Positions 7,720 through 34,757 of a stretch of DNA of 36,089 nt are shown here, piece by piece; position 1 is the first letter of the stretch; each line of letters begins with the position of its first letter. Where the stretch lies: the NCBI RefSeq assembly GCF_000150275.1, contig NW_002060966.1, forward strand, positions 462,561 to 498,649. The letters run 5' to 3'. The notes beneath the pieces are model-generated. The model was given only the letters and a program-made list of their open reading frames with translations. It was not told the origin of the DNA and ran no database searches. The stretch is from Trichoplax adhaerens (taxonomy: Eukaryota; Animalia; Placozoa). Position numbers and translations under genes: made by a program.

Positions 7720-7802
7720 GTAAATGCAACCAAATTACTGTTGCACAAAGTAAATCTAAAAAAATTGACATAAGTTAAATCGTGTCTTGATTGTTTTCTT
7801 AG

Positions 7803-8033: not shown

Positions 8034-8233
8034 TCCTTGTCGGCGTCTTGGGGAAATAGCAATTTTTACCACGTTATCGATAATTTTACGCATATCGTTA
8101 AAGAACTAAAAGCCAATTCCGTTTCTAACGTATTCTTAATTTCCGATGGACATTTTGGCGATGAAAATTCCATTACTGCCATTTTAAGGCGTGATAAAAT
8201 AGACAATTTGAGATTATTTACCTTTTCTACTGG
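8034..8233 (+). CDS. PARP4: PARP4 vWA exon (SLSASWGNSNFYHVIDNFTHIVKELKANSVSNVFLISDGHFGDENSITAILRRDKIDNLRLFTFSTG)
   Basis: Corresponds to ORF-track entry 8037-8288 (the exon begins at acceptor 8034, three nucleotides upstream of the ORF's first start codon). Matches human TPTMGNTDFWKTL..RNILLVSDGHLQDESLTLQLVKRSRPHTRLFACGIGST. Phase-2 donor gg|gtcagt joins the next exon. Confidence 0.85.
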
Positions 8234-8373
8234 GTCAGTAGTATTTTTAATATTTCTGATACTCGATTTTATGAACCAAGTCATTTAATATTAATGATAA
8301 TCCAATAAGATCTGATATAAAGAAGAATCCGCATAATCGGTTTGCTAATTTATCTTCTCTACGCATACAATAG

Positions 8374-8473
8374 AGATACGAGTAATCGTTATTTTATGCG
8401 TACTTTGGCGAAAATTGGAGCTGGCTATCATGAACACTTCGATACAAAATTTAGATCCAAATGGCAACAAAAG
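8374..8473 (+). CDS. PARP4: PARP4 vWA exon (DTSNRYFMRTLAKIGAGYHEHFDTKFRSKWQQK)
   Basis: Matches human STANRHVLRILSQCGAGVFEYFNAKSKHSWRKQ. Acceptor caatag|, donor aag|gttcaa. Confidence 0.8.
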
Positions 8474-8593
8474 GTTCAAAAATCGTCGTATAATGAGTGA
8501 TTGAAGGGATAAAATATATTCTGGCCTAATATATTTAAAATTTATCCTTTGTTTATACTATTTCACGTGTTATATCTAATCTAACCTAATTAG

Positions 8594-8689
8594 ATACAAA
8601 ATCAAATTTATAAAGCTTCTCAACCAACATTAACATCAGTAGCTGTCCACTGGCAGCAATTTGATGATAATCCTCAACAACTTATGCAG
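8594..8689 (+). CDS. PARP4: PARP4 exon (IQNQIYKASQPTLTSVAVHWQQFDDNPQQLMQ)
   Basis: Matches human IEDQMTRLCSPSCHSVSVKWQQLNPDVPEALQ. Donor cag|gtgatt. Confidence 0.8.
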
Positions 8690-8862
8690 GTGATTATAGT
8701 CAAATTCTGTATACATTCAGTGAATCTATCGGCTGCTAGAATTGAATAAATCTTCAAATTTAGCTCCTTGGGTATCGATATAAGAGAAGATTTAACACTA
8801 TTACTTCAATAAAATAAATTACCTTTGATTGCAGACAATATTTTAATTTTCTTTTACAATAG

Positions 8863-8937
8863 GCTCCCGCTGATATCGTTAGTTTGTTTAATGGATCAAG
8901 ACAAGTTATATATGGTTTTGTTTCCAATTGTACGCAG
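8863..8937 (+). CDS. PARP4: PARP4 exon (APADIVSLFNGSRQVIYGFVSNCTQ)
   Basis: Matches human APAQVPSLFLNDRLLVYGFIPHCTQ. Acceptor caatag|, donor cag|gttagg. Confidence 0.78.
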
Positions 8938-9029
8938 GTTAGGAAATAGAATCTTTATCTCACGAGCATTTGTAATTTTTGTAATGATCCTGTTAGTATT
9001 TTATGACATGAATTATGCCTGATTAATAG

Positions 9030-9110
9030 GCTACTTTGGAAGCCAGCATTGGTGAAATCCAAATTTCTACTGTCGTATCTACATCCGAATTGTGTATCAC
9101 AACAGGAAGG
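9030..9110 (+). CDS. PARP4: PARP4 exon (ATLEASIGEIQISTVVSTSELCITTGR)
   Basis: Matches human ATLCALIQEKEFRTMVSTTELQKTTG. Acceptor taatag|. The donor position is uncertain by one codon. Confidence 0.7.
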
Positions 9111-9440
9111 GTGGGTCTTAATAAAATTAAAACTTGGGTTTCACGCAATAGTTATCCTTAGGTTGAAATGGAGACTTTAGCTTAGTCGTTGTTCGATTTT
9201 CAGGCTTCTATTCATAATTACATTAGTAAATGTCATTTTACACATTAATTGATTGGTGCATTGACTGTAATAGAGCAAATAACGTTTAATCTAAGTATTG
9301 GTAATTGGTAAATGAGGAGATAGATTTGCAAATAATGTAGAAAATATTAAAAACATGATATTGGCACTTTAACTGTGTCATATTTAAATTCGATTTTTGA
9401 AATCTATTTTAAACCTTAAATTTACTATCAATATCACTAG

Positions 9441-9521
9441 ATTCTACATCAATTGACAGCGCGAGCTCTAATTCGTGATTACGACGACGGAGTCTATAAT
9501 ATAAAGCGCACCACCCATGAG
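9441..9521 (+). CDS. PARP4: PARP4 exon (ILHQLTARALIRDYDDGVYNIKRTTHE)
   Basis: Matches human MIHKLAARALIRDYEDGILHENETSHE. Donor gag|gtagct. Confidence 0.82.
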
Positions 9522-9611
9522 GTAGCTATCAAAAATATCAAAATGGGAACGCAGTGTAATCTATATTATAGATAATTAGATATTATGAATAACCGCTATG
9601 ACGATGTACAG

Positions 9612-9713
9612 GCTTTTAAAATAGATCGGAAAGAAGATATCATTAAAATAAGCCAACGCTATTCTATTGTCAGCCCATTTACGAGTTTCGTAGCCATTGA
9701 AGATCGTAGCCAG
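9612..9713 (+). CDS. PARP4: PARP4 exon (AFKIDRKEDIIKISQRYSIVSPFTSFVAIEDRSQ)
   Basis: Matches human LKSLIIKLSKENSLITQFTSFVAVEKRDE. Acceptor tgtacag|, donor cag|gtagca. Confidence 0.75.
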
Positions 9714-9802
9714 GTAGCATAAATGAGATATCTTGTCGCAGAGATTAAAATAAACAGCAGATTTATTTATTAAATGTAAATATAATTTACACTTTCGTAC
9801 AG

Positions 9803-9898
9803 GACCAAAGTGACCGAAGAGAATCCTTCGATTTAAGTAAATTAATAAGACTTGAAGACATCGATGATCTATCTTATGTGGGTTGGAGAGGAAAGACG
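9803..9898 (+). CDS. PARP4: PARP4 exon (DQSDRRESFDLSKLIRLEDIDDLSYVGWRGKT)
   Basis: Matches human SPFPDIPKVSELIAKEDVDFLPYMSWQGE. Acceptor cgtacag|, donor acg|gtaagg. Confidence 0.72.
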
Positions 9899-10365
9899 GT
9901 AAGGCGATCCTATAATTGGCAGTACTAATTTCAACGTTAGCTAAATGGACACGGTAATTATTTTGTTATTCTAGCAGTAGTTGTATTTACATCCAAAAGA
10001 CGGAAGTAAAATAGAACACCGATTGCTCTTAAATTTCTATATTAAAACTTATCTATCATTTAAGTAGTAAACTATTTAAAGTAAATTAGCTAGATTCGAA
10101 TTATTCCAGCAAGCTTGTACTTCCAATGCTTTTAATCCACTGTCAACAAAGTATCAGTAACCCTAGCAATCAATTCTATATCGCATACTCAATATTGATA
10201 TGTTACTATGGGTATAAAATTTGCTTCGGTATGGTAGCTTTTGTATCTAGTTTATAGTTTTAATAATTTGCGATCTCTAATATGACGATCATGTTCTATT
10301 CCATTGGCAATATCAGTTATCCATTTACTTACTTGAATGGTAACTTTGTTTCATGTATCGGCCAG

Positions 10366-10726
10366 GAAGACGATAATAAAGATAGTATGATATCTGGTAA
10401 AAAATCTGGAATTGGAGATTCACGACAATCTTCCAGAACGAGAGAAAATGTGATTCGGTGTTATACTCCAAGTTCATTCCCTTCAAGCTGTGCAAGTACG
10501 TCATCGGATGAATTCTCTACAAATAGCGAATCAAACTATTCTATAATATCGGAAACGGAATTACCGGAGTTTTCCGATCCTGAGGTTACCATTGATGTTA
10601 TCAATAAAGATGCGGAAGAGGAAGATGAAATTGAAGAAGAAGAAGCAGCATATTGCTGTGGAATAGATGAAGATGAAGAAAATGATGATGATTTATGTAA
10701 TGAATATATATTAGAGGCGAAAGAAG
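10366..10726 (+). CDS. PARP4: PARP4 acidic low-complexity exon (EDDNKDSMISGKKSG..SDEFSTNSESNYSIISETELPEFSDPEVT..EEEDEIEEEEAAYCCGIDEDEENDDDLCNEYILEAKEG). 3' end not fixed
   Basis: Part of ORF-track entry 10282-10836. Phase-0 acceptor ggccag| at 10365. Candidate donors at 10397, 10496, 10697, 10727 and 10772 are all phase 1, the same phase required by the Pro-rich exon at 12594. The acidic composition resembles the acidic stretch of the vPARP C-terminal region. Confidence 0.5.
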
Positions 10727-11738
10727 GTACTAGGATCGTATCAGATGATTTTAATGGTCTACTTTTAGGAAGTAATCAATGGATAAATAATAATTCTAAT
10801 ACTTCAATACATGAGAATAGATTAATAAAAAACTAGCCTTACCTTAGTAACTAATTTTGGCTGGATTTGAAATTAATATAAATCATTATAAAGTACCGTT
10901 ATCACTTAAAAGTTTGAATTCCTTGCTTAAACATTAAATTTGATTAATGACATCTATCGAGCCAGATGAGTGTGAACCAGAAATTTGCAAGGCATTTTCA
11001 AGTAAAGCAATTGATGACAGCGAAGAAGGGGAAATGCTTGCTTTACCTAAAAAGGTTTTTCATTGCTTAAACTAGAGCATTATTTAGCCATGATGAGATT
11101 ATTTACCAATAGAGCAATTTACAACTTGGTAATATAGATATATTGTCCGTTTTTCTTCCCTACGTATAGCATTTAATGCGATTTACATTAATGTATTCAA
11201 TGCTATTCATTATTCTAATTCTCACTCAAATATGAACTTCTGATTAATCATTAGTACAATATGCATAATTATGAGACGATAACAATATTAAGCTCATTAT
11301 TTAAAATTACAATGATAATTACAGGTAGTACAGCATTGATTCTTATAGTTTTAAGTTATAGCCCTCTTAGTAAAGGCAAAAATCGTCAACTTACTACAAG
11401 TTCATTTTTAATTTCATTCTGCTTTTACAATAACAATGAATCTTTAAAGTTGCCTTCATAGCATTACGTAACAAAAAACACCTTATAGAACTTGTTTAGC
11501 AATTTCATTGCTCCATCTTATTTCATTTTTAGAAAGAATTTTACGCGGCTGCAGGTAAACATTTCAAAATTATACCCACCATGAAGAAGAAAGCCTTATC
11601 CAAAAAAAAAATGGACAGGAGTAATCATAACTTCATACTAGCTGATTCGATCTATAGAACTCAAGGCATCATTAGCTTATTCTAGTCTGTCAGGTAAAAT
11701 TTATTTTATATAAGAAAATCTTTTTATTCGTTTAAAAG

Positions 11739-11827
11739 GGACAGAAAAGGTCCTTGACGATCAATTTGGGAACTTTTATGATCCATCGACCTCATCAAAG
11801 CACCTTTCAACTCGAACGTCTGAGAAG
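11739..11827 (+). CDS. Candidate small exon (TEKVLDDQFGNFYDPSTSSKHLSTRTSEK) with strong donor GTGAGC. Membership in PARP4 unresolved
   Basis: Open frame bounded by tttaaaag| and aag|GTGAGC. No clear homology, and its phase does not chain simply into the 12594 exon. Confidence 0.25.
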
Positions 11828-12593
11828 GTGAGCAATTACTCTTACTGAGTATAAAAATTAGGTTTGGACATGCTTGAGGAGTAAATTATCGATACAAATT
11901 CAATTTCCGTCTTTAGCTTGAAAGAGCAATAGTAGGTAGTTCTGAAAACTTCTCCATGGAAGAACAGACGTATACGGCAGAAATAAAAGATGAGAGAACG
12001 CAAAGTAAACAGTAAATCTATCTATGAAATTTCAAATGATATTCAATATGTATATATAGTATATATCTATCAGATAGAAACTGTCTATTAATCGTTATTT
12101 TTATATTTCCAATAAATTAAGAACTATCTATAGGTATGAAGCAGACTAGAGGTGCATTAGATTCTTCTATAGAAGCAATTTCATCATTTAATTCAAATTC
12201 TCCACGTACTGCTCAAGATGGCCTTCAAGCAGGGGTTAGTAAAACTTAAAGTGTATTCAAACAGCTTCAGAATTTGAATTTTGCTCTGGGAAGTCATCAT
12301 CCATTATATTATATTTGCTTTTTATCAGCAGAAATTAATTCGGAAGTTTAGAAGCCTAGCTACTCTCAGAAGAATGGAGGAGTCAAGTAATAATATAATT
12401 GAATTTTACTTATTAAGGCGATATTTTGCGTAGAATAACTAAGCTGGCAGTTTCATTTTTGGATAGAAAATGAGCTTTAATAACTTGTATGCATTTATAT
12501 ATCTATGCTATGTTCAATTTACACTCGCACAATAGATTAAGGTATTTTATTTAACTGAAATAGCTTAAAAAATTAAAATCATGTTATATACAG

Positions 12594-13202
12594 CTATCCC
12601 ACCTCCTCCGTCATCTTTAGGACCCACACCGACTTTAAGATCTCAACATTTTCGGATAAGTAAAAGTCGGATAGCTTCAGGACCTCCGCCAGCACAAGCA
12701 TCTCAACCATGTCCACCTCCTCCACTTCCAGGATCTTCAGCATCTGAGCTATTCCCGCCTCTTTCATATTCACAATCTAAGACTAATGAAGAACTATTAG
12801 TTCAACAAATACACAAGCCTAAACCAAGTTCGTCTATTGAAATAAACAAGCACAAGGCGAAGATAGAATATCAATACGCTAGTATGAATGGAGCTAAGGA
12901 GGATATTGTAGAAATAGAACCTAACAGGGCGGCTAAACTTGGTTCACTGGCAACTTCTGCTAAGGCCTTAAAAGGATTCTTACGTGTCGGGAGACAAACT
13001 AATAGCTTTCTATCTAGAACTAACTTTAATTCTTTAGGCGCAAGTGCTGATGATCATTCTAATTTAGCTAAGGAGGAAACATTAGACGATGATAAGAAGG
13101 TAGAATACAGGCAAATGAAATTCAGAAAATCTAAAGCGCTAGCAAAAAAGTACAAATCTGCGAATACTAAAGACAATCTTGTTGATGAGCCTGAAAATCC
13201 AA
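12594..13202 (+). CDS. PARP4: PARP4 Pro-rich low-complexity exon (IPPPPSSLGPTPTLRS..GPPPAQASQPCPPPPLPG..KFRKSKALAKKYKSANTKDNLVDEPENP)
   Basis: Part of ORF-track entry 12581-13213. Phase-1 acceptor tatacag| at 12593, phase-1 donor a|GTAAGA at 13203. Pro-rich composition parallels the human vPARP Pro-rich region. The 5' boundary is inferred from phase only. Confidence 0.55.
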
Positions 13203-13351
13203 GTAAGAATTAAATTGCAATATAATCAATTTATTAATAATTTACCCGCACTAAATTATGTTCTAATAGCCAGTAAGTTAATCTAAGAAAGAGTTTGTAG
13301 ATAAATTATATTAGTCGAGAAATTAATCCTAATCGTTTTAATTATTCATAG

Positions 13352-13410
13352 AGGAAATGAAAAATTTGACCTATATAAATTGCAGGGAATTGATGATGTT
13401 TCAAGTATCG
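13352..13410 (+). CDS. PARP4: PARP4 C-terminal exon (KEMKNLTYINCRELMMFQVS)
   Basis: Joins 13202 and 13573 in phase. ELMMFQVS|DGYWEV parallels human ELLSLQTEDGFWKL. Acceptor ttcatag|, donor tcg|gtacga. Confidence 0.6.
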
Positions 13411-13572
13411 GTACGAAATAATTTAATATAATAAAGTCATGATTAGAACATAGACTTACACTATCGATATAAGGAATCTTTTTAAAGATACACTAACGAT
13501 AAGCTGTTTTTTATAGCTGCCGATGTTTAGTATAACAGGATATCGTAAACTGATATTTCTTAATATTTAAAG

Positions 13573-13672
13573 GATGGTTATTGGGAAGTAACACCGGAAA
13601 TAGCTGCAATAATAAGAATATCTGTGGAAAAGTTATTTAGATTACTAACTGAAGCTGGAATTTATTCATTGG
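13573..13672 (+). CDS. PARP4: PARP4 C-terminal exon (DGYWEVTPEIAAIIRISVEKLFRLLTEAGIYSLG)
   Basis: Matches human EDGFWKLTPELGLILNLNTNGLHSFLKQKGIQSLG. Acceptor tttaaag|, donor g|gtaaaa. Confidence 0.82.
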
Positions 13673-13785
13673 GTAAAATCGAATTAATCTACAGTAGTAC
13701 TTTCAATACTATCATGCCATTGTAACTGATACTTTTATACCATGTAAAGTTTGTTCTAATATTTAATTTTATTCACTTTATTTAG

Positions 13786-13988
13786 GCTCTAAAGCTTGTA
13801 AAGATATTGTTCGTATGGTATTTACCAAGATTGTAATCGTTATTCTTGGAAAGATTGCACAGTTGCAGGAGTCACTAGCACGTGCTACGAAATGGCTGGT
13901 ATTCATGGATAAAAAATATCCATCGCTGCTATATCGTTTTGAATTAGGATCAAATTGGGAATGTGTGGCTAGAAAATGCCAGCTTTAG
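13786..13988 (+). CDS. PARP4: PARP4 terminal exon with stop codon (GSKACKDIVRMVFTKIVIVILGKIAQLQESLARATKWLVFMDKKYPSLLYRFELGSNWECVARKCQL*)
   Basis: Matches the human PARP4 C-terminus (ECLLDLIATMLVLQFIRTRLEKEG..ASEWVRRTEGQYPSICPRLELGNDWDSATKQL). TAG stop at 13986-13988. AATAAA at about 14439 is a possible polyadenylation signal. Confidence 0.82.
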
Positions 13989-16974
13989 GAAATTACATGA
14001 TTTTGACTACGGATGATTCCATACGGTAAAAGAGCTAAAGAATACACTTTAAATTTTTCCTTAATTCACAAAGCGATACGTCTGCTTTATTCTATCGTCG
14101 TTTATTTAATGTTTTATCTCTAACCAAAATGTGATAGGTATGTAAAAACTTTGCTTACTATGTCGGCCAAGTTTACTGGTATTTTTAATTTTATATTCTA
14201 TAACTAATCTCATGTCCAAAGTTTTGGCTATGGACTCCTATGATATGCTATAACACAGCAAGTAGATTCAGTTCTGCGTACAATTTTACATTTGAAATGT
14301 ATTACTATAAAACTAATTACGACTTCAGGCCATAAAACTGTATTATCTGCTTGATGCGAATTGATCAAATCATTTCCAAATATATCAATTTGCGACCATA
14401 ATACATCAATAATTTTGAAGGAAGTTTAATTTATTTGTAATAAATTGGTGTTATAAATCTTTGAAATAATTTTTGGGAGTATAATTGATAGAGCTGATGT
14501 CACTTTTCGGTATATTATACTTTTGGGCCTAAATTTTATATTTCAGAACATATTGAGTTTATGCATACTCGTATAATAAACAATTTAATATTTTGGTCTA
14601 TTTAAGCTGTAAAAACAAAAGCAAAAGCAAAAGCATGTATTCAATGCAGGGAGTTGGTTCGCATTGCAAGGTGACTTCTTGCTCTTTCTTACCTATGAAG
14701 TCGCGCTTTCGTTACAAGTTATGACTTAATATGGCCAATGAAGTTGCCACTAAATACTGATTCTCTCCTTAGAGCATTAAAATAGTTATTATCCAGTGTT
14801 ATATCACTTGCTAATAATATTCTTTGCCTTATGCTTACGAGATTCATAGAAGCAAGAACAAGTTAATAATCTCATGATTTCTGATATACACCAAAATTCA
14901 TTGAAAGGCTACTACACCTAAATTTATGTTTACCAATAGAGCGTCTGATAGATCAATACAAGGAAGTATATGTAATGACTAGCGCGTATTTCCTCTTCAT
15001 AAAGAAAATAGATAGTTATAATTGTTGTACTTATCAATATAGTGTATTTTGCTTTAGCTTTAGCTAGAGAAGATACGCATTATTACTAAGAGACCAATTA
15101 AATTTATTTTTATGTCAATTATTTTTGAGATAGAATATTGTTTGTAATCATAGATGTTATTTTGTTAGGATTATCGCAGCAGTCAATGTTAACGAACATT
15201 AAACTTTAGTCCTGTACACTATTGACGACTTGGAAATTCTCGAACTCTATAGTAATCACATTATGCAACTTATTTAATATGGGAATCAAAAGCTGCTGAT
15301 GATTGAACTGTGTCTTGGACATTTATAGTTACTAAATTTAAAAGGCTAAAACTTTAGTATAATTGGATAATTATATCCTTAATTTACATTAGGCGCAGTT
15401 TAATCAAAAGTATAAAAGGAGAGGTAGTAGCTAAAAATATTAATTTGACTTACCTATTCTTGAAGACTGAACTAGGAAATGCGAGTCTAACTCGTAAGTT
15501 CTTTTATTATACGCAAGCAACTATTATTGGTGTTTGGTGGTGATTGAGGCTAGATGCTGTGTCTTAGCCCGTAATGTTATTCGCTATACTTTTATTAATG
15601 CTTGATGGAGACTTAGTCTAGGCGCTACGTGTTAGACTTACAAGTTTTAAATTTCTATTTTCTTCTAAAATATTTTGTTTGAATGCTTCACGGTTGCTTT
15701 GATTGAATCATTTAATAATTTGCTTTATTGCCTCTATCAATTAAGTATTTTATAGAATTACTCACAATAATATTTAGTCTTAGCACCTACTGACATGCAC
15801 GCCTACAGTACATATTAGTGTTAGGTAGAGTACGATTTTAAGCCTACCGAGAGTTATACACTGCTAGGTTAGAGAATATCTGTCTTTTGAGATAGAGAGG
15901 TTTTAGCTTATAGCGGCTTCAAATAAAGAATTGCAATAATATCAAATTTATTTAATAGCAATGCTGATATCAATATCGGTAGGATAATACATTACAGTAC
16001 TGTACTAGTAATTGAACTAATTGTTCACTATGGGGTAATAGACTCTTAAAAATCATGAATATCAACTTTAATTAATAGAACTGCAGGTTTGTATTCAAAT
16101 TGAGAATTATATTGCTAGTATCTGCCTCTTCGACAATCTGCTCATTGTAACAACTCTATCAAGAGCCACCTTTATCTGATCATCATCTAAGATCTTTAAT
16201 TTTATTTAGTTGCTAGTCCTATATTTAATAAATATCTTTAATTAGGCCGTAAATGAGGCTATATCCGAAAATTTGATTAATATTCTCGATCGGTTTTTTG
16301 AAATTTCAAATAAATATTACAATCTAAGTACCTCTGTATTCACGGCCAGATAACTTTACTGAATCATTAATAAAATACCATCATTATTTAGCTATAGAAA
16401 CGTTAATTAGAGAAATTACTAGACTAAGTTAAATTACAGTAATGTCAGAACAAAAATGAAATTTCTATCCTACTGTATGTTAATAAATTTTTATGGCTAT
16501 TAAAAAGAACGACTTATCCCAAGAACTTTGATTCGTTACAACTACTATTCTTATATAATTAAGTAATCACTGTCTACGAATAATTTAACGTTATGTCTGA
16601 GTATTATTGTACTGTATATGTACTTCGAATAATAAGATACGTAACTCGTATAAATACATAATTCAATAATTAAATGCTTAGAAAAATTTGCAACTTAACA
16701 TGATGCATTATATTTGCAAGGTTAGCGCATTGAGAACGTCAATTAAAATATTAAATTGGTAGTACTTGTATTGCATTTGATTTAAGAATTCTCGGCCTAG
16801 TGTTAATTAATTAATTTCATTGGCAAAATGTCTATTATAGCTATATACGGGTACTAAAAATAAAATTTATCTTAGTTTAAATTTTATAGTAAGATTATCT
16901 AGAACATTTAGACGTCAAACTCTTCATAAATGATATGCACTAGAGTGTTGGAGCGTAATAGAAGCAAATTGCCA

Positions 16975-17191
16975 CGCATTTAGGCTTTTACTGGACTCAC
17001 ATTCAGAATTTGAAAAAGAAACTCCATTTAGTGTCGCCTGCCAATGCCAAGCCATGCCTTATAAATTGACCTCTGATCAATCAAAGACATTTACAGTAGA
17101 AATTTTAATCGATGTACCGCTCAAGCACCATCTATATTCGGTTGCAGAGAAGCTACGTGCAGCAGTACTCAAAGATGCAAATAGAAGCTAA
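16975..17191 (+). pseudogene. Degenerate death-domain exon copy (..AFTGLTFRI / EFEKETPFSVACQCQAMPYKLTSDQSKTFTVEILIDVPLKHHLYSVAEKLRAAVLKDANRS*), frameshifted
   Basis: Paralogous to the DD exons at 21.2 and 26.2 kb (the FEKxxPFSV..QC..M....TVEIL....L...L.SVAEKL pattern). Relative to those copies it has a 1-nt deletion near 17008 (cagaatttgaaaaa versus cagaaatttgaaaaa) that splits the domain across two frames. Confidence 0.45.
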
Positions 17192-18137
17192 GACGATATT
17201 AGAAGGGCTTAGCTATGTACAAAATTCTCGACAATATTAATCAGAGTTAGAATAGATTATATTGTACGATTATACCAGCGTGTTTTCTCGTATATATTAT
17301 TCACATTACACTTATTAAAGTCCCAATTGCGTACATGTTTATAGCCTATTATTGTAGGTGATGATGAACAAATCTATTTTACTTTTTACCAGGCAGGGTA
17401 TGTTACGGACATTACAAATATTGGTATATTAAATTTGCTTTATTGGCGGTATTTGAATTAAGCGCTGAACAAATAGGACTAGAACAGGATTACTAACTCG
17501 AATTTACATGATTTAAACGTTATTGATTATCAATCAGTTTATAGCTAGTTCTTGTTAGTTTACAATTCAATTACCCTACTCATACCATTGATGCAAGCTC
17601 AAAATACTATAAGGATCACTGATGATTATTCCTAGTATTAGATGCTACACTTAAATTACTGCTGAATAGTAAATTTTTACACGCTAATATTAAGTAGAAG
17701 TTTTCACCTACCGATAAGAGCAAGACATGCTAATGTAGAGCGCTGCCACATTGTTTATACGAATAAATTTATTTGCATTTTGTATAGAAATTGACCAATA
17801 TTAAGAGCGAATAAAATAGATATATGTAATTGTAATCTTCTAATTTCTGAGAGAGGTTGAATGATAAATTTGTACTCCCCTAATATTACGTCTGCCATTA
17901 GAGTGTCTAATAAAATAATACAATAAGTTGATAAAACGTCTATTGCTGTACTATCTGCCATATACTATTTGTAGTTACTAAAAGGTTAAAAGACATCTAC
18001 GATGATTGCTTGAAAATACCCGTTTGGTTTTAAGCCTATTTTATAAGCCATGCTCATATATAGCACTAAATTATCAACTCACTGTCAAAATAATTGGTAA
18101 TGTATGCGCATAAGCTTGTATTTATGTTCTATTTTCA

Positions 18138-18156
18138 TATATATATATATATATTT
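18138..18156. repeat. (AT)n dinucleotide microsatellite, about 9 units
   Basis: Direct reading: catatatatatatatatatattt. Confidence 0.9.
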
Positions 18157-20921
18157 ATCTTTTGCTTTATCGTATGATGCAATACCAGCTGACAATAAGG
18201 ACATGCACCAAGTTCCTCATAATCTGATATCAATATCTATTTGGTAATTACAACACGTAGAAAAACCAACGGCTAAAGATTAAAGTCAGGTAGTTTGATA
18301 AGGTATCATTCATTTTCAGGTACTGCTTTTTAATTTGTTTATCTAAATAAGAATTTTATTGCTTTAATGTTTCTTGTACCACTAATGATGAAAGCTATAA
18401 AGTTTAAAGGCAGGAACTACAAGATTACGTTATTTCTGCTGAATTGTCTATCCTCTACAAATCAAACAAATAAAGACCATCATGTAAGAAACTTTACTAA
18501 AGTATGAGTCAGTGATTGATAGATTCCACTTCATGATAGTAATTGCAAGAAAATCTACCAATTTTATGAAGACAAGCAAAGTATTGAAATAATTAGCAGG
18601 AGTGCGAGATTAATTTGAATATTTTCCACCTCCGTCCCGGTGCAGCATGATTTTCTTGTAGCACTCAGTCATGATAAATAGGTAATGGTTGATAAACTGT
18701 TAACAAACCATTAAAACAATCTGTAGGTAGGATAGATTAGTGGATGCATCTTTAAAAATTTAAACTCTCTAACGCCATCAACTTACCATTTAAGTGTTGA
18801 TTAGTGCAGCAGCAAGTAACTTAATTATTAGAATTGTAACCCCCGTAAAACCACCAGCTTCGCTAGATATTTTTCAAAGATTTACAATTTCTTAAAAACG
18901 ACTATGCAACGTTTTCATTGCCCATTGACTCCCATCGCCACGAGTTTCACTGACTTCATTGATGATTGCAATCTGAGGTAGAATAAAATAGTCGACGTAT
19001 CATATCATGAAACTGAGCTACAGTAAAATGCCATGAACTAAACAATATTATCTGGGTTATTGAATAACCTCTACCCTCATTTTTATAGCCCTTTATCGAT
19101 GGCGCATGAAACAACGTCCAGGAGAGATACCTATCAATCTAGAGAGAACATAAAATATTAAAAATAATGGCTAACACGAATTAATATGCCAATAGATACT
19201 CGAGGATATTAGATCCTCTAGAATCAGTAAATTCGACTGAAAGAGTAGCTTTTAATATATTTGTAGTAATATTCTGACTTCATACTGGTACGTATCCATA
19301 TCACATAATTTTCAGCTTTAAGTTGAAGTACAGTGTATCGCTTCCTTGCTCTCTTTAGTTACCTCTTGTTCGAATTAAATTTTCATTTAGTGCAAGCCCC
19401 AATGTGCCATGCAGTTGATATTTGATACGCAGCAACTTAATTAAAGAAATTAAAACAATGTTTGAATTGAAGCCAATGTTCATTAATTACTTATTCGCTT
19501 AACTAAATAGATATCAGCTATGGTACCCACTATATCGTATCGTTTCTACGCCTGAATTTTTTATTCATTTCATTTCTTTAAAGTTGATAGCCTATAACCA
19601 ACACACCATGTGGATCATTGAATTGAATTTAGACTAGATCATGACCTATAAAGTTACACGGGTTAATTTGTCAACTTTGGCTTAATTAATGTTTACGCAT
19701 AATATAATTAAAAATAGAAATTTATTTGGAGAAAAACTAAAACTACTACAAAAAAAATAAATATTATGGGCCTACTGTCAGGATTGTCATCTCTAAAATC
19801 TAGCTGCAGTACCGGTACGACTCTAAGTCCTGACTACATCCACATCATTAGCGAATTGCAGTAAACCAACAATCTCTCTAAGACAATAATTGGCCCAAAC
19901 TTTATTGAAATGTCAGCCAATTTAGAGTACAGTGATAATAACATTAGTTATCAGCATATAGATAATATTATACAACTATGCAGTTATCCATTAAAAAATA
20001 TGCTAACCGTCATAGATAAATTGATATCAACTAGATAATTTAGCTTTCACGAGCACGGACTTCTAGGTATCTAGTAGTCTATGTCACGAGTCAATTATCA
20101 ATATAAATAACATAACTTAGTTCTGGATCGTAGATTATTAGTCATCTTTGATATGAAGTGAGGCAGCAGAATTTATTACATTCATCTAAAGGCATCCATA
20201 GTAGCTCAGAGCCATAGAATATCTTATAGATTTATTAGAGTCCTGATGATCATACACACAGTAAGGTATTAAGTCACTACAGATATTTGGATAAGAATAG
20301 TATCGCAACTCATGTATTAGGATATGGTTACTTTATTGTACTTTAACTGCCAAATATGATGTCTAAGTTAATACTGTGACTATTACCACACTGGATGACA
20401 GATTAATCGCTGTAAGATATTATTAGTTACTACCAATAAATTGTAAAATTAGGTAAAATGTAAATATGCGTATACTGATTATAGCCGCAAATGCTACGAA
20501 AAGTATGCAGGTACAAGCAGTCAACTTCGGAATATCCTGGTACTTTCTTTTAGAAGTCTTTCTACTTATTGTATTAGGCTAGAGTAGATGTGTGCAGATT
20601 ATCTTTGTATTAGCAATCTAATAAAGTTCTAATTCCCTACAACTTTTTAAATCCCCTAATCGATTTTATCGAAATAAATTGCGTCATAGCCAATAAGTTC
20701 TCGGATAACTACCTATATATTACGATTTCTATGCAAAAGTTACTCTATAACAGATATACGACTATACAGTAGAGAATTTCGTTAACGGTTTACTTTAATT
20801 TACGCATGTATTTTTCTCGATATGACATAAGGAAAATGAACATGTTTCGCAAGACATAACGATATGTATGTTGGGTAGTTAAGCTAGATAGTTCCGTTAA
20901 TTGTTTAAAATAATGCTATTA

Positions 20922-21402
20922 CTGGATTCGTAAATTGGATTCAATTTGAATTAATACTAAAGAATAAAATTTTAGATAGTTATCAGTTAGCAAGTGAATT
21001 TGAGAATTCTATCTCTGTAACACCTGTATTTGTAATCTACTTAATTAGCTACATAGGATACTAAATAAATGTTTTCGTAGTATATACTTCCCATTCAGAT
21101 ATTTTACGTATATCATTTAGCTGTCTGACCTTACTTGAAAAAATATTACCTAGGAAATTAGAACAGTTTGAAAAGAATTAACTCCAACGCTACGCTATGA
21201 CTGGACGCCGGTTAAGAAATTTGAAAGAGAAAATCCGTTCAACGTAGGCGATCAATGCTTTGAAATGCTCGATACACGCAGCAAAAATAACAAATCTGCG
21301 CTTATAATAGAAATTCTAACGGATAAACTAATTGATTGCGGTCTTCGTTCTGTTGCAGAGAAGTTATATTCAGCAGTATATAGCGATCCAAACAAAAGCT
21401 AA
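20922..21402 (+). repeat. Duplicated ~480-bp block (copy 1) containing a death-domain terminal exon. Paralog of 25874-26361
   Basis: Extended nucleotide similarity, roughly 75% by eye, with the 25874-26361 block. It starts at actggattcgtaaattggattcaatttgaa and runs through the DD exon. Confidence 0.7.
21176..21402 (+). CDS. Death-domain-encoding terminal exon, copy 1 (LTPTLRYDWTPVKKFERENPFNVGDQCFEMLDTRSKNNKSALIIEILTDKLIDCGLRSVAEKLYSAVYSDPNKS*). Parent gene model incomplete
   Basis: Open frame with a DD consensus pattern (LG.DW..L...f...nP....eQ...ML.......at...L...L...gl...AekL). Phase-1 acceptor aaaag| at 21175, stop TAA at 21400-21402. Upstream exons not identified. Confidence 0.6.
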
Positions 21403-24400
21403 TGTAACTTATTAAGGGTTAATAACTGCGTATAAAAGTAGCTGCTTTGATCAGATTTAGTATCGATGAAATAATGTTATTTACTATAAACATGTACATG
21501 CACAAAATTTATTGCAATATAGATTATATTATACTGTAGATTGTAGAATAGATCAATTTAATAACCGTAACTAATAATAGTGATAAGCATTTGACTTTAA
21601 ATTGTCTTTATAAGATAGTTAGTGGTAATAGGATTAATTTCCGTAATTAGTGCTTATAAAAATGAAGCCTCAAGCTATTCTAGATTGCATTTTGCTTTAA
21701 ATTGCTGAAATAAAGTGCGGGCCTTTGACTAGAGAACTTATTCAAGTCTCAATTATATTCCTGATTTTAGGCGATAGCAAGCAAAATTACCTAACTTTTC
21801 ATCAGATGTGGTATGGTACTACTAATTGTCCACCCGTCTATTGCTATTACTTCATTATTAAGATTTGAATTAAAAAGCTAAAGAAACGGGAATTAAAAAA
21901 ACTTATTAACTCAAATTTGCTTATTTAAAATCTTGATTAATCAATAATCAATAATTTAGCTACTTTTTCTTAGTATAAATTTCAAGAACTTGTACACGGG
22001 TGCAAGATCAGTACATTATTTAAAACGTTGATGATTACTCCTTAAATTAGATTAAGACACTAAATTACTGCCTAGTAGTACATATGACAGCTGAATTCAA
22101 GTAGAAATTTCTTAACTGTTGCTAGAAGAAAGATATCTTAGCAGAGAACATTATAGCATTCTTCTGTTAGAACTGATTCATTTGCATTTTTATCGGAAGT
22201 AGCAAATGATAAGAGCAGATAAAGTAGAATTGTCTTTTTATTTTAAACTATACTAATTTATACAGATTAGGATACCCGATTAGACAATTAATTAAATTTA
22301 TTAGAATAATTGCGTCATATTCTTCTCTCGTTATATAAGTACTTACTTATTATTCAGCGTTATTTACTGCAACACTTTAACATTAGGCTGTACTAAATTA
22401 ATCTACAGGCTAGCGAAGCAAAATAATCTATTTAAATCGTGACTATAATGATTAATCTGGTGGCCGAGCCGTTAAGAAGTTGAAATAATAGAATACTAGT
22501 AAAATGGCCTAATTTGAAATATTGCAAACTACTACAGAGATAGTCTATCGTGGTAAACTGGTAGGACTGGCTGGTATTCAGATTAATGAGAAAAAGTTAT
22601 TCATGCAATACAGTTGAAGCTTCAAGCTCATGGTCAATTTACAATCCAAGAAGTAGGAGAAAATGTTTTTGTTTTTAATTTTTAACACCTCATGTTATAA
22701 TCCTTCCATATACTGTAAGTAGTCAAAAGAATCTCTTTCTAGCTAGTACAATTTATTACGCACACTGACTTCGAGGAAAAGTTAATTTCTCCATTTGATC
22801 CTGAATATTGGAAATTCAAGTGATCTTAACGAGACAAATTCCAATCGATGGACCCAAAGCCGATAAGTTAAAGTGTCCTATCAAACTTTGTATCGAATAT
22901 AAATAGGATTTGTAAACAGATGTTGTGATATCCGATAATTATAGCATGAGTGCCAGCAATGTAATTCAAGATAATATTGTTGAACTATGAACACTAATAC
23001 TAATACTTTCGGTTGTATTTGTTATTCAATTAAAATGCGGAAATAAAATAACGAATTATTTTATGAAACAATAGAATTACTTCTACTAAAAAGGTTCCAA
23101 CGTTGGAAACCCATGGATAAGAGGATGCAGTATCATAAATATATATGTTATGGCCAATATCAGTAACAATATCTCTCTTAAACTATATAATAGTATCATA
23201 TACTGATATGAATAATTTAAAGTTATGATGCTCAATTAACTCTTTAGTCCTACATGGCGGCAATTGTCATTAGAGCGTTCGGTATTTTATTGTCTATTGG
23301 ATCATCCATATTTTAAGCGGTGCACACGTAGCAGTCGTCATATTACCAACAAACTAGGTAGCTTTTAATAATCCTGTTGGACAGTTAAATGTGTCCTGCG
23401 TAGGTTCGTGATATCAAAGATAAGCGAGAGCAGTCTCAAAATTTTTCACTTAATTCAAGATTAATTTGGTGAGTAGATATAATTAGCAGTGTATGTACTT
23501 GGATTAATATACGATATGATCAGAAGAAATATAGCAAGATTAGGTTAAATTAAAGCAACGTTAGAACGAAAACGAAATTTCTGTCTTACGCTAATCAATT
23601 TTTGCAGCTGTTAAATCAACGACCTAACAAGAAACCTTTTATTCGTAAAAATTATTATTCTTGTATAATTCATTAATCACATATTAGGTATTATTAAGTG
23701 TTATGGTACAATTGTATTTGTACTTATTCTGAAAACTAAAATACTATAGCATAAGAACTATCTTGCAATTAGAGAAACACCCATCCGGCAATTTTCAAGA
23801 TCGTTAGAGTTTTAAGAACCCGCATACGTCACAATATCGATGTAATTTACTAGAACCGTAGAATAGTTAAATATATTCCAAAATAAAATACCCAGATTAC
23901 TTTCTTTCTATTTCAATCTTTACAAATGAGAATGATTATTTACGTACGATGTCAGAAAATTTTGTTTTGTATAACTTAAAATTTTACGATAGGTAATGGT
24001 TATTACAAGTTTTCTTGAGGATGTATAAGCATACAGTGCTTTATTTGCTTATTATACTTATTGTCTGATAATTCGAATTTAAAAATGCTATAGCTGGTTA
24101 TAAAATGATAGGATATTTTCATAAAATAGTATATACTTCAAGGTGTGGTAATGTAATATTTAGAATCTGTTAAAATTGCTACGCTTGTAATACTTAATAT
24201 CCTATTTTATTTTGCTATGTAACATTATATACTCTCATTACGGACTACTTCCTGACTAGTTTACTAGTCTAACGTAAAACAATTACTTTGAGTTGCCTCT
24301 ACAGATTACTACCCTAATCTATCGAAATATCTAGTAAGAATATAGTACTGCAACTATAACGCTTAAAAAGTACCCTTCTAAAAGGCTCACAACCAGTAGA

Positions 24401-25035
24401 TAGACTATACTATAATCTACAAAATATTGACTATTTTTAGCCAAAATAACAATAATCAGGTTATCGATATTCTACTATCTTTACAGATAAAAAATACTTG
24501 ATTATCTATACTACGGTAGACCACTTACATTTTATTATGGTATAACAGTAGATACCTTAGTAATTTAGCGTCATATGTCTTGCCATCAACACTCAAAGTA
24601 AGCTATCTTTAAAGCATCTCTGCAAGTTTTCTTAATAGAATATTATTCATAAATAATATTGCTAACAATTTTTAGGAAATTTCTGAAATGTGTAATAGTG
24701 TCCTTATCACGATACCCGTACTACTGTGAGTAGAATAATGCTGCGATGTAGGTTATCATTTAATATAGAATTGTACAGCATATTCATTTTTGGATAAGAG
24801 TAAACGAATTAGTCAGACACCTAATAATATTTATAAGAAAGCTCAAAGGACAGATTATCTTCATATCATAGTTTACCTCAAGTTACATTCGTACGCTAAC
24901 AATTTGTAAAATAGCGCACTAAATTATACTAATTTATATCTAAAATAATAAGGCTAATTTAGTTTATTAGTGTAACATTGCATGTAAATAGATACTCTGT
25001 AGCTGCTCGCGAATCTAGTTAGAAGCTATAAATAA

Positions 25036-25045
25036 GGGGGGGGGG
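25036..25045. repeat. G10 homopolymer (GGGGGGGGGGAGG) inside an AT-rich intergenic region
   Basis: Direct reading. Confidence 0.9.
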
Positions 25046-25873
25046 AGGAAATGTTTTAATACAAAGTGTTCTAATTTTCATCTTAGTAAAGATTGGCAGT
25101 TGTGCTTAGTCGCCGTTGAAAGCAGTCTCTGTGTTATACTTGGGGTTGTAATAACAAAATAGTTTAAAAATCATCAATATAGAAATTACTTTTGCCCTTT
25201 CAGTAGAAAGTAAATGATGCCAATGATGATAAATTTCAACACATTAGATATTTATATTTTAAAATAATGATAAAATTTAGAATATTAACCCTTACGTGAC
25301 ATTAGGTTAGTTGTCTTTCTGTTATTCTTAACTGACTTTCATTTAAATCTTTACTACTAACTAAAATCATTCTTTTAGTGATTTCTAAACAAGTAAGACT
25401 TATCATTTATTTCAGATGGAGAATACAGGTATTTAAAAGTTTATTAATTAATTTAAAGGCATGCAGATCAATAATTATCACATTTACTTTATAAATAATT
25501 TTTGATAATATATTTCAAGAGGTTAGAGTTAACCTATCATTTTAAATCTATGATGCAGCATTAGTTGCAACTGTCAAGACATCATGATTACTGCAAGTCG
25601 CTAACTGTAACTTATTCCATTGTGTACAGACTACCACATACATCATAAAAAGCAAGGAGAGCCTAAATTTTTAAAGCAAGGTTTGATTTCAGGCAGAATT
25701 ACTTAAAAATTTAGCAAAATATTTGTGCTTCTCTCGCTTAATGCATACTGACGTTACGATAAAGACTAAAATATTGTTTATATAAAGGAATTAAGTAGAA
25801 ATAAACTGTTATCAGTGTAGTAACGAAATACGTTCTATTGCAACCAGTGTCATTCAAAAAACCTGATATGATG

Positions 25874-26361
25874 TACTGGATTCGTAAATTAGATTCAATT
25901 TGAACGCATATTAGGATGTAAAATTTTTAGTAGTCTTGGTTTAACATTTGAATTTTAAGAATTTTACCTCTGTCGCGCATTTATAATGTTATTTGCAATC
26001 TGCATAATGCAGTACATAATGATGCCAACAGTAAAAGTTGTCGTAGTGTGAACTTCCTATTCAGATTATTTAAATGTATTATTTAGATGCCAGACCTTAT
26101 TTGAAAAATACTACAGAAGAAATTGGAACAAATTGGAAATAATTAGCTACGAAGCTGGGCTATGACTGGACCGCGGTCCAGAAATTTGAAAAAAATAATC
26201 CGTTCAGCGTTGACGATCAATGCTTTGCAATGCTCGATAAACGCTACAAAGATGGCAAATCTCAAGTTACAGTAGAAATTCTAAAGGAAAAACTTGTTGA
26301 ATGCGGTCTTCGTTCAGTTGCAGAGAAGCTTTATTCAGAAGTAAATAAAACTAGTAACTAG
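25874..26361 (+). repeat. Duplicated ~480-bp block (copy 2) containing a death-domain terminal exon
   Basis: Paralogous to 20922-21402 across both the intron-like upstream part and the exon. Confidence 0.7.
26147..26361 (+). CDS. Death-domain-encoding terminal exon, copy 2 (ATKLGYDWTAVQKFEKNNPFSVDDQCFAMLDKRYKDGKSQVTVEILKEKLVECGLRSVAEKLYSEVNKTSN*). Parent gene model incomplete
   Basis: Clean DD pattern. Phase-1 acceptor aattag| at 26146, the same phase as copy 1. Stop TAG at 26359-26361. Confidence 0.65.
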
Positions 26362-29111
26362 AATTTAATTTGTAAACTAGCTCTTATATTTTGCTATGAA
26401 TTTGGTTTTCGCTTGGTTATGTTGCACCCTGTCTCTTGTTAATTAATAATTTGGGTCTTTATTTGACTTTGCTAGTAATAAATATAATTTACCTCGTAGA
26501 AAGTTAGAGTGGATTTCAGTGTTATAGCTCTCATAATAAATGAACGTATGCATGAAAATGCTATCACCATCAGAAACTAGTTTTGATTCCTTCAATTCGA
26601 TAAAGAAATCAATTTGAATTATTAACATAAATATGAGAATTACAAAATCGTGAAGTATTTATAGTATATTGCATGGACTATTGGTATAGTTAAGCCTAAA
26701 ATAGGCTGCAACTTTGCGTAATACAATTATAGCTGGATGTGGCACATCTGGAGTTAGGGTAAGGATAGACTTCACCTATTTATCTTTTCGTGTGCAATGT
26801 TTAATAATATGTCGTTGATCGGGACTGTAAGCTAAACATTTGACTGTTAGAACAACATTATGATTCAAGGTCAGAAAGTGAACTAATAATGCTTTCATTC
26901 ATCTATCTAGCAAATCTATCTCGTAGCATGCTACTATTATAATTAAAGATGTATTTCTAATGTGTTTGCTACTGTACTGAACTAATTCTACTTCTCAATC
27001 TTAACCATAAAATACTTTCGCTCTTATATTTGGTAACATTAATTACCAATATTCGAAATGATGCATAGACTTCGATAAAATTGATAGCAGAATAAACCGT
27101 AATTCAATACGAGAAATGCTTATTACTGTAATTACTTATAGTCTGAATGAAGTATTGGTGCGAGTTAATGAACTCCCAAACTTTATGTAGCCATAATCTT
27201 TCGTAAAAAACGCATGGAGTCTTACAGATGTCAATGAAAGGCGAATTCTAAGTCTTTCTCAGACATTTTTTTAAATAAAAATTTTTAAACGCCATAGTTT
27301 AGATATTACGATACAAGTTATTTGAGTTCTAAAATGTTTCAATTGCTATTTTTACTTAAAGAGATGTTTAAAAATGACATACTAGAAACGCTGAAGACAA
27401 CAATAACGACCATTAATATCATAACTACTTATTCCATATAACTATATCTTACATGATAGCCACCAAATCCAATTCGATCCACAATAATTATCCTAAGAGA
27501 TAGATAAACCGCGTAATTGTTCACGATCTAACATTTAAAAAGTTCCTTGCCTTATAATTGGAAAATCCTGAACATTTTGAATATTACCTCAATAAATAAT
27601 TGGATACATAAATCCTCTACTAATTAGTTTCAATTACCTTAAATTTAGCCGAGAAATACATAACTATTTCGCAATATCACAAGGCATTGCAGATTTTGGT
27701 AAAAGGATTATCGGGGTTCGTACTGGCTGCGACTAATTTTAGTAATTTATCGGCTTTGCTAAGATAAAATATAAAATAGCAACGTAAGCTTAGATAATTA
27801 ATAAATTTATTCATAATATTTACAATCTATTAAAAGCAACATTTGCTCGCACGTTCATATTACTATATTAAGTAAACCCTTTTAGTATTTAACTTCGTTG
27901 CTTAACATCAGCTCACATTCTTGCGTTATTAAGCATGCTAAAAGTTAAGCGTAATTATTTCCAGAAATCACTCTGCAATGGCTATCTTCAGACAGCAAAA
28001 TAGAGCGAAATAGGTGTCAATAGACTATTAGCAAACTAACCTTTCTGCAATTTATAGAAGGAATTAATCTACTGACAAAGAAAGAGAGATCTGCTACTAA
28101 TAAGATATAAATTATACAGTGATATATCTCGATAACGTAGAGAATGGAAACTAAGGATCACGTCAGACGAGATTGCATTGGAATATTCACGCTCTGATAA
28201 ATCAAGTACATCAAGTCTAGAAAAGAGTACTGTGAAATTATATTATCCGTCTAACAGATTTACTAAATACTTTAGTAAATGATGATTGGATACTTATCGG
28301 TACCAAGTAATTGTTATACTTTATTCACATTGTATCAATTGAAGTATATCTGCATAATTAGAAATATAACGTACTTTTATTGAAATAGAAGAATAAATCA
28401 TCTATTGTAGTTACAATTAATTACATTATTATTATTATCATCCATGGACTTCTACCTGTTATTAATTAGTGAGCAAAAAGAATAGTTACAGTTTCCAATC
28501 GTGATATATAATACCGTTCTCAAAACACGTGATGTGAAAGAATCCAACTGTTGCACTGATAAGTATATTTACGGCCTAAAGTTGATAGTTTATCTAGTAG
28601 AAAAGATTCCGATAATAACAAGTCTAGACCATTGTAATAGACCTACTGCTACTTCGTTAGGTTGGTAGTTTAACGATCTTCCGGTCGTAGACAAACTTCG
28701 ATTCTTAAATAGCGTAGAAACGCCTAACTTTAAAGAATAGTTAACAAACCTTAAGTTACTAGCACATTTGGGCATAGTCTAGAAGCTGTCAGTCCCAGCT
28801 CTCAGAACGTGGTATAAGAGTGAATACTATACCGGTACTTTACTGTTTCATTATCAGCTACGGCCACTAACATAAAATATTTTGCGCAAACCATTACAAC
28901 CATAAAATGATCATTGGTCTTCGAAATCATAGAAAAACGAATAATAACGTTACACAATCCAAGGTAGTCAAGTAAGACGAAGAGTAACAGAGTATACTCG
29001 CACTGCTCTTTGAGGCTCTTTTATTGTTAGAATTAGAGATAGAAGAAATGGTGAAGATTTAAAACATGGAAAGATAATTTCATTGTTTCATTTAGTGAAA
29101 AGTCGTTGGAT

Positions 29112-30131
29112 ATGGCAAGTACAAATAAAATTGATAGCCTTACGCCTTGTGATAGCCAATCTAAGGAGAAAAAATCCATCATGGAGGACCTTAGAAACTT
29201 AATTACGACTGGTGGAAATGAACAGCAACAAAACAACTACGAACAGGCTTTAATAACCTATAACGAAGCTTTAGATCGAATTAATTTCGTAACGATGGTC
29301 GAAGACAAGGACGAGAATGAATATTATCATGGTCTTTATTTAGAAATCTATCGAGAAATGGTTAAAATTTACAAGAAACTACTTCGTTATGAAGATATCC
29401 TGTGGATTTATCAAAAAATGTTAAAAGTGCAAATTGAAGTATCCGGAGAAAAAAGTCAAGATGTAGCTAAAATCTATGAAAAGATTGCGTATGGTTATGA
29501 TAGTCTCAATCAAACCCATAAAGCTATTGCCATGTTTGAGAAACATCTACATATTAAATTAGAATTATATGGCGAAAATAGCCATGAAGCTGCTGATGCT
29601 TATTTTGATGTTGGATTAGAGTATGAGCGCCAATCACATCATTATAAAAGTTTGTCTATGCTTAAAAAATCATTACGGATTAAAATAAACCTTCTTGGAG
29701 GGGAGCACTACGATCTTGCCAGTATCTATAGTATGATTGGCGATATATATACTGATCAAGATAAATTTAAGGAAGCAATCGCCATGTACGAAGTCTGTTT
29801 AACTCTTGAAGTACGTCAATATGGAGATAACCATCTTTGTATTTCAAATCGTTATAACTCTATTGCATGGGCTTATCAATGCCAAGACCGATACAATGAT
29901 GCATTGGGCTTGTATCAGAAATCATTAAATATAGTTGTTGAATTATTTGACGAAAATGATGATCATATCCTCGAAATCCAAGAGCAAATTGCTTTAATCT
30001 CTAAAGAACAACATCAGCAAAAAAATTCTAAATTGATACCACAAGATAATCTTCAGAGCAATGAAGATGCCGCAACAGTAAATGAAATTATAATCAAGGA
30101 AGGTGATCAATCAGTAGGTAATGCTCATTAG
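29112..30131 (+). CDS. Single-exon TPR-repeat protein (TPR_12 / kinesin-light-chain-like repeats), 339 aa
   Basis: ORF-track entry 29106-30131. First in-frame ATG at 29112, with an upstream in-frame stop at 29052. It carries four to five 42-residue repeats with the A..Y..iG..Y..q.ky.eAi..ye..L.I pattern: VAKIYEKIAYGYDSLNQTHKAIAMFEKHLHIKLELYGENSHEAADAYFDVGLEYERQ, ASIYSMIGDIYTDQDKFKEAIAMYEVCLTLEVRQYGDNHLCISNRYNSIAWAYQCQDRYNDALGLYQKSLNI. Confidence 0.8.
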   Translation: MASTNKIDSLTPCDSQSKEKKSIMEDLRNLITTGGNEQQQNNYEQALITYNEALDRINFVTMVEDKDENEYYHGLYLEIYREMVKIYKKLLRYEDILWIYQKMLKVQIEVSGEKSQDVAKIYEKIAYGYDSLNQTHKAIAMFEKHLHIKLELYGENSHEAADAYFDVGLEYERQSHHYKSLSMLKKSLRIKINLLGGEHYDLASIYSMIGDIYTDQDKFKEAIAMYEVCLTLEVRQYGDNHLCISNRYNSIAWAYQCQDRYNDALGLYQKSLNIVVELFDENDDHILEIQEQIALISKEQHQQKNSKLIPQDNLQSNEDAATVNEIIIKEGDQSVGNAH

Positions 30132-34416: not shown

Positions 34417-34757
34417 GTAAGTCTTTAGGTAATCAAGAGTGAGATACGTCGTAACTTAAAATCATTGCCAATTTCATTTCAGTAATCTATCCATACATTT
34501 ATCTCTATCGAAGTAGGAGATTCGGCTGTTTCAGCCCAAATAGTGTAATTTCTATAATTAATCTAATTTATTTACGTACTTTTCTCTTTGTAGTGTTATG
34601 TTTTCATATCAGATTTACACGGACTATTTAGCAAAACTTATAAACTAATCTTATCACTTCTATAGAATTGATTTAACTGTACAATCTGAAGATTTTAAGT
34701 ATACGGTAGCTAATTATAACTATTGCTAAAATATCTCACATGTTAATATTTCATTAG

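Follow-up and report, generated by a model that had tools for sequence, protein, structure and literature searches.

Death domains (DDs) of the ankyrin and UNC5 type normally follow ZU5-UPA modules, and amphioxus, sea urchins, sponges, cnidarians and bivalves have large sets of DD genes, tandemly duplicated and with numerous pseudogenes among them. For the oyster, large-scale duplication of innate immune gene families is reported (PMC4346834). Here we describe an array of three DD-encoding segments, copies 1 to 3, in a stretch of 36,089 bp from the placozoan Trichoplax adhaerens (assembly GCF_000150275.1, contig NW_002060966.1, positions 462,561 to 498,649 of the forward strand), referred to below as the window and numbered from its first nucleotide. 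The three segments are likely to be pseudogenised relics of a terminal exon that encoded a C-terminal DD, spread by two local partial duplications.

Searching the window by tblastn with the copy-3 peptide revealed exactly three DD-like segments, all on the + strand and with start-to-start spacing of 4211 and 4965 bp. This bears out the first-pass annotation, made from the sequence alone, in which three paralogous + strand DD segments were placed 4-5 kb apart. No fourth copy was found in the window with hidden Markov models (HMMs) built from the copies (hmmsearch and nhmmer). The assignment to DDs also holds when translations are compared with the Pfam Death profile (PF00531, gathering threshold 22.6 bits): repaired copy 3 reaches 48.2 bits (E 1.2e-12, profile positions 4-85 of 86), and its stop-free part alone scores 28.6 bits, still above the threshold. 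After repair, copy 2 reaches 18.0 bits and copy 1 19.4 bits, each below the threshold, and tblastn shows both to be clearly homologous to copy 3 (E 1e-29 and 60% amino acid identity for copy 2, E 1e-10 and 47% for copy 1).

At the DNA level, blastn comparison of the whole window with itself aligns 20920-21382 with 25874-26347 (475 bp, 75% identity, E 1.5e-87), in accordance with the diverged block of ~480 bp, including upstream intron-like sequence, noted earlier as common to copies 2 and 3. Under lenient blastn settings copy 1 aligns with both of the others, with copy 3 over 16692-17191 and 25860-26368 (62% identity, E 2e-35), and with copy 2 over 16838-17262 and 21046-21472 (61% identity, E 7e-27). 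The DD copies are real, and their similarity lies far beyond chance.

DD homology continues in the same frame for ~60 bp 5' of the exon starts proposed in the first-pass annotation (16975, 21176 and 26147), up to a TTTAG acceptor that is conserved throughout the array, and the Pfam alignment of copy 3 takes in this N-terminal stretch of ~60 bp. Alignments and raw sequence place the exon starts at the conserved acceptor, at 16912, 21121 and 26087, where the junction has phase 1; the starts proposed before were wrong, and fall directly after in-frame lesions. Likewise, the acceptor described as identical in copies 2 and 3 is not the same site, as the AG dinucleotides at 21174-21175 and 26145-26146 lie 6 nt apart in the alignment and read AT or AA in the other copy. 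The 3' ends of the segments had been set correctly at stop codons (TAA 17189-17191, TAA 21400-21402 and TAG 26359-26361). In the alignment, the terminal stops of copies 1 and 2 coincide, and that of copy 3 lies within two codons of them. Because the stop position is conserved at the domain end, the ancestral exon was the terminal exon for a C-terminal DD. On the same grounds, a reading of copy 3 as the 5' exon of the TPR gene that follows the array was rejected.

None of the three copies has an uninterrupted frame across the ~85-residue, six-helix DD. Copy 1 is interrupted by three stops (TAG 16941-16943, TAA 16956-16958 and TAG 16959-16961) and by a 1-bp deletion near 17005; it is recovered by tblastn in two frames (16905-17018 and 17006-17182), and six-frame translation agrees with the frameshift reported for it earlier. 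Copy 2 carries the stops TGA 21126-21128, TAG 21151-21153 and TGA 21169-21171, together with one extra A in the run at 21138-21143. In copy 3 a single in-frame TAA (26140-26142) is found, at a position where copy 2 has GAA. Decay of the array, as first described, is present, but it is not limited to one copy: read from the correct start, none of the three is free of nonsense or frameshift lesions. An alternative genetic code as an explanation of the stops was rejected, since the same window holds standard-code open reading frames (ORFs) of 947, 341 and 325 codons.

Copies 2 and 3 diverged neutrally. Their identity by codon position is 0.76, 0.79 and 0.80, and the Nei-Gojobori ratio of nonsynonymous to synonymous divergence (dN/dS) is 0.99 (bootstrap 95% 0.51-2.57, dS 0.24). 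The exon is 78% identical and the ~210-bp upstream non-coding block 74%, with ~45-48% outside the block; with a ratio of 0.99 and the divergence of flanking non-coding DNA, the earlier treatment of copies 2 and 3 as live exons does not stand. When copy 1 is taken as the outgroup, 22 changes are specific to copy 2 and 21 to copy 3 in the exon (271 sites), compared to 21 and 16 in the intron block (193 sites). The equal counts in the exon indicate that slower evolution is not the reason for the higher Pfam score of copy 3. Furthermore, ~20 neutral substitutions in ~90 AT-rich codons would be expected to produce about one stop, which fits copy 3.

The interval studied comprises 16 kb (13.2-29.1 kb) between a PARP4-like gene and the TPR gene. 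When all 200 stop-free segments of at least 30 amino acids from both strands of 13214-29105 were compared with Pfam, the sole match was the copy-3 Death domain, and no ZU5, UPA, TPR, NACHT or transposable-element domain was found in them. Exon relics in pieces shorter than 30 amino acids, or heavily decayed ones, could escape such a scan; co-duplicated short relics would not escape detection, because the DNA self-comparison covers them. In codon-usage log-odds trained on the window's own long ORFs, the DD pieces rank best in the interval and nothing else stands out, and tblastx of the window against itself gave no further paralogous blocks between the units. Two alternatives had been left side by side in the first-pass annotation, that short upstream exons were overlooked between the copies or that the copies are orphaned exon relics. 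With no Pfam domain and no coding-like segment on either strand of the interval, the former is not sustained and the evidence favours the latter. Because they have no upstream exons, the copies cannot make a DD protein.

These results bear directly on whether copy 3, at least, still works as the 3' exon of a multi-exon DD gene that has escaped annotation, with short upstream exons that went undetected. In that case, TAA 26140-26142 would have to be an assembly error, a strain polymorphism, or a codon bypassed by use of an acceptor at 26146|26147. Assembly error typically shows as a homopolymer indel, whereas this lesion is a substitution, and an exon beginning at 26147 would lose DD helix 1, its AG being AA in copy 2. 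Copy 3 does have a Pfam Death score of 48 bits with one lesion only, a conserved TTTAG acceptor and stop position, and a stop-free part whose coding potential ranks with the highest in the interval, and its dN/dS against copy 1 is 0.57. Its dN/dS against copy 2 is nevertheless 0.99, its specific changes equal those of copy 2, its rate matches that of the intron block, and no upstream exon, Pfam domain or paralogous block was found in 13.2-29.1 kb, so that a live gene appears quite unlikely. In a more elaborate version, copy 3 would be the terminal exon, live or inactivated only as a polymorphism, of a DD adaptor gene that is lineage-specific, evolves fast and has tiny 5' exons that escaped detection, and the array an active birth-and-death locus for innate-immune DD modules; we find this hard to credit. 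If a live locus did exist here, it would point to a DD repertoire unlike that in current protein databases (at most ~30-39% identity to the DD proteins found).

We have also addressed the question of what was duplicated. The blocks are colinear and in the same orientation, and the homologous part makes up only 0.5-1.15 kb of each 4.2-5.0 kb interval, so that tandem duplication of whole 4-5 kb units is not supported. Similarity ends at nearly the same 5' point in all copies (~16692, 20920 and 25860-25874), ~210 bp above the acceptor. On the 3' side, 17310-17846 and 21736-22259 form an additional block (block D; 62.8% identity over 554 bp, E 5e-38, lenient blastn), which nhmmer finds in copies 1 and 2 only, and neither in copy 3 nor elsewhere in the window. 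Between the exon block and block D, ~260 bp are specific to copy 2 (21473-21735), where copy 1 has ~47 bp (17263-17309); the segment 21473-21735 is a copy-specific insertion or deletion. The identities are nested, with 75% between copies 2 and 3 and 61-62% between copy 1 and the others, which suggests the topology (1,(2,3)). Same-strand paralogous blocks and nested identities are in favour of the origin proposed earlier, by local duplication of a DD terminal exon together with upstream intron-like sequence.

Since the intron block and block D still align, neutral DNA of this age is still recognisable, and yet homology ends ~210 bp upstream of the exon, which suggests that the duplicated segment would never have held upstream exons. 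Upstream exons lying outside the duplicated segment are the simplest reading, and the partial copies would have been dead from the start. The regular spacing on one strand (4211 and 4965 bp) might also be thought to stem from a tandem array of complete DD genes, in 4-5 kb units of which everything except the DD exon has eroded, and dN/dS values of 0.57-0.67 on the older branch would suggest that the copies stayed functional for a time once the first duplication had occurred. However, neutral sequence this old would be expected to stay recognisable, at 62-75% identity, while there are no further colinear blocks and in every copy homology breaks off abruptly ~210 bp before the exon; a dead array of whole genes is very unlikely.

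A processed (retrotransposed) pseudogene was rejected as well, given that each copy keeps ~210 bp of homologous non-coding sequence above the acceptor and that no poly-A tract was found at the block ends in any of the three copies. The nearly common 5' point at which all three copies lose homology, and the 3-4 kb of unrelated sequence between units, would agree with a gene fragment of ~0.5-1.2 kb captured by a non-autonomous element (Helitron- or Pack-type), belonging to a genome-wide family clustered here, and an unrelated ~220-bp repeat shows that other repeats are active in the interval. There are, however, no inverted repeats or other terminal structure bracketing the DD blocks, and the Pfam scan of the interval detected neither a transposase nor a reverse transcriptase or helicase domain. 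The 3' extent of the blocks varies, block D being present in copies 1 and 2 only, and the single orientation, the location within 10 kb and the nested divergence fit local duplication. Transport as mobile-element cargo is accordingly considered unlikely.

The ~220-bp repeat is a direct repeat present in two copies only, at 16411-16640 and 23525-23744 (+ strand), with 75% identity over a 160-bp core and 67% over the rest. One of them abuts DD copy 1, and 2.1 kb separate the other from DD copy 3, which lies downstream of it. The repeat was rejected as part of the ancestral unit, because its core is more similar (75%) than DD copies 1 and 3 (62%) and none is found near copy 2. It is probably an independent short repeat or a non-autonomous element.

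Taken as relics of local partial duplication, the copies would go back to an ancestral segment made up of ~210 bp from the end of an intron, its phase-1 acceptor, a terminal DD exon of ~92 codons, and at least ~0.55 kb of 3' flank. Of two successive local duplications on the same strand, the first would have set copy 1 apart from the common precursor of the other two, and the second would have split copies 2 and 3. From this second event onwards at the latest, substitutions, stops and 1-bp indels would have accumulated at the neutral rate, leaving copies that presumably have no present function and preserve a record of birth-and-death in a DD gene family. Judging from DD biology, the ancestral domain may have stood at the C-terminal end of a scaffold or signalling protein and promoted assembly through homotypic DD-DD contacts.

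Several observations weigh against this reconstruction. The dN/dS bootstrap interval for copies 2 and 3 reaches down to 0.51, and drift is not confidently assignable to one lineage. Comparisons of copy 1 with copies 2 and 3 give dN/dS of 0.57-0.67, at dS of 0.8-0.9 (near saturation), a hint that constraint acted during some of the earlier history. Copy 3 remains in good condition: its acceptor is intact, its Pfam score is strong and a single nonsense codon interrupts it. It could be very recently dead, polymorphic or mis-assembled. In addition, most of each 4-5 kb interval is non-homologous, so that simple tandem duplication needs later unrelated insertions, and no transposable-element signature for such insertions was found in the interval. 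An intact parent gene was found neither in the 36-kb window nor in protein searches.

Relatives of the domain were sought with copy 3. Exhaustive phmmer with its stop-free part against 1.84 billion representative proteins gave five weak hits (E ≤ 1e-3). The best is Branchiostoma belcheri KAI8485794.1 (E 4e-7, 30% identity), with four DDs and NHL repeats, and the second Patiria miniata XP_038062863.1, with four DDs and ZU5, labelled "Netrin receptor UNC5" in UniRef; two of the five are bacterial non-DD proteins and probably spurious. Among PDB sequences searched by phmmer, copy 3 best matches the ankyrin-3 DD (4o6x, E 0.0016) and ankyrin-2 ZU5-UPA-DD (4d8o), followed by RIPK1, CRADD and FADD. 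The repaired copy-3 DD had no match in a word-indexed protein search. When metagenomes were scanned with the alignment of the three copies, a single locus emerged, on a contig of 51% GC, which matches only the search pattern LGYDWTAVQK and was dismissed as a relative. The similarities weakly suggest an ancestor among ankyrin/UNC5-type DDs.

Coordinates of the DD copies and of other features in the window are listed in Table 1.

Table 1. Features of the window (positions counted from its first nucleotide)
Feature	Position	Strand	Remarks
PARP4-like (vault-particle poly(ADP-ribose) polymerase) multi-exon gene	1-13213	+	weak to moderate Pfam matches
PARP_reg exon, PARP4-like gene	2455-2931	+	Pfam, 41.7 bits
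PARP catalytic exon, PARP4-like gene	3405-3596	+	weak Pfam match, under curated cut-off
VIT exon, PARP4-like gene	5827-6042	+	Pfam
VWA exon, PARP4-like gene	8037-8288	+	weak Pfam match, under curated cut-off
Last ORF of PARP4-like gene	12569-13213	+	proline-rich, then lysine-rich
Copy 1, intron-like upstream block	16692-16911	+	ends TTTAG 16907-16911; blastn, three-way alignment
Copy 1, DD terminal-exon relic	16912-17191	+	most decayed; ancestral stop TAA 17189-17191; tblastn, Pfam
Copy 1, 3' flank (block D)	17310-17846	+	common to copy 2 only; blastn, nhmmer
Copy 2, intron-like upstream block	20920-21120	+	ends TTTAG 21116-21120; blastn
Copy 2, DD terminal-exon relic	21121-21402	+	stop TAA 21400-21402
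Copy 2, 3' flank (block D)	21736-22259	+	blastn, nhmmer
Copy 3, intron-like upstream block	25860-26086	+	ends TTTAG 26082-26086
Copy 3, DD terminal-exon relic	26087-26361	+	best preserved; ends TAG 26359-26361; no homologous 3' flank
Single-exon TPR_12 ORF	29106-30131	+	~339 amino acids from ATG 29112; Pfam TPR_12, 108 bits
Uninterrupted ORF of 947 codons	31342-34185	+	very low complexity; rich in S, N, Q, K; no Pfam domain
Stop-free stretch of 325 codons	34730-35704	+	no recognisable domain

The window looks like animal nuclear DNA, and scans of its whole length for Rfam families, tRNAs and tandem repeats gave no matches. GC content in 1-kb bins is 28-37% over the whole window, with 28-32% in the interval that holds the DD copies and 30-37% in the remainder, so that AT-richness is not the distinctive mark of the DD region that it was initially taken for. 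Introns of the PARP4-like gene are mostly ~60-400 bp long, in contrast to the 16-kb exon-free stretch that follows the gene. The TPR gene named earlier as a neighbour was confirmed by its TPR_12 match. Its ORF has no homologue at E ≤ 1e-5 in a word-indexed search of 5.8 billion proteins, common repeat type notwithstanding, which suggests a lineage poorly represented in databases.

The other neighbour reported earlier, a ZU5 gene at 34730-35704, could not be substantiated. Judged by its length this stretch is clearly coding, and the 947-codon ORF before it may be a long 5' exon of a gene that continues into it. The stretch has no Pfam match at E up to 5, aligns with the Patiria ZU5-DD protein by BLASTP at E 2.7 only, and has nothing relevant in a phmmer search of PDB sequences; the 270-amino-acid ORF 34895-35707 has no match in the word-indexed protein search. 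A single-sequence AlphaFold model, mostly of predicted beta strands, is unusable (predicted local distance difference test score 34). If 34730-35704 were a ZU5-UPA gene, its DD would lie past the end of the window. With ZU5 unconfirmed and no intact DD gene in the window, the earlier suggestion of a locally expanded apoptosis or innate-immunity family is not upheld.

For annotation, the three segments should be labelled as DD pseudogene fragments and not as exons, to avoid inflated death-domain gene counts. They would indicate local partial duplications within a DD gene family at this place, while the intact parent probably lies elsewhere, and as relics they could help to date turnover of the family. 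Nothing about this is unusual for a gene family that expands and contracts by duplication in many invertebrates, and the finding has little weight beyond annotation.

Compared to DDs of the ankyrin/UNC5/PIDD type, copy 3 has in common with the PDB matches the pattern ...W.ELA..L......I..F...NP.S...Q...ML, and the domain likewise stands at the C-terminal end of the reading frame; unlike in those proteins, the reading frames are broken in all copies and no ZU5 or UPA lies upstream. The relics also differ from known DD proteins in sequence, with identity of at most ~30-39% for DD hits and a best E of 4e-7 in the 1.84-billion-protein library. The nearest relatives, multi-DD proteins of Branchiostoma belcheri and Patiria miniata, link the array to invertebrate DD-gene expansions, from which it departs in that only exon fragments were duplicated, none of them intact, with no functional member in the 36-kb window. 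Duplicated (unprocessed) partial pseudogenes offer a further parallel: as in these, the copies keep intron sequence and the acceptor, are clustered on one strand, lack 5' exons and have dN/dS of ~1, the only oddity being that most of the inter-copy spacer is unrelated between units.

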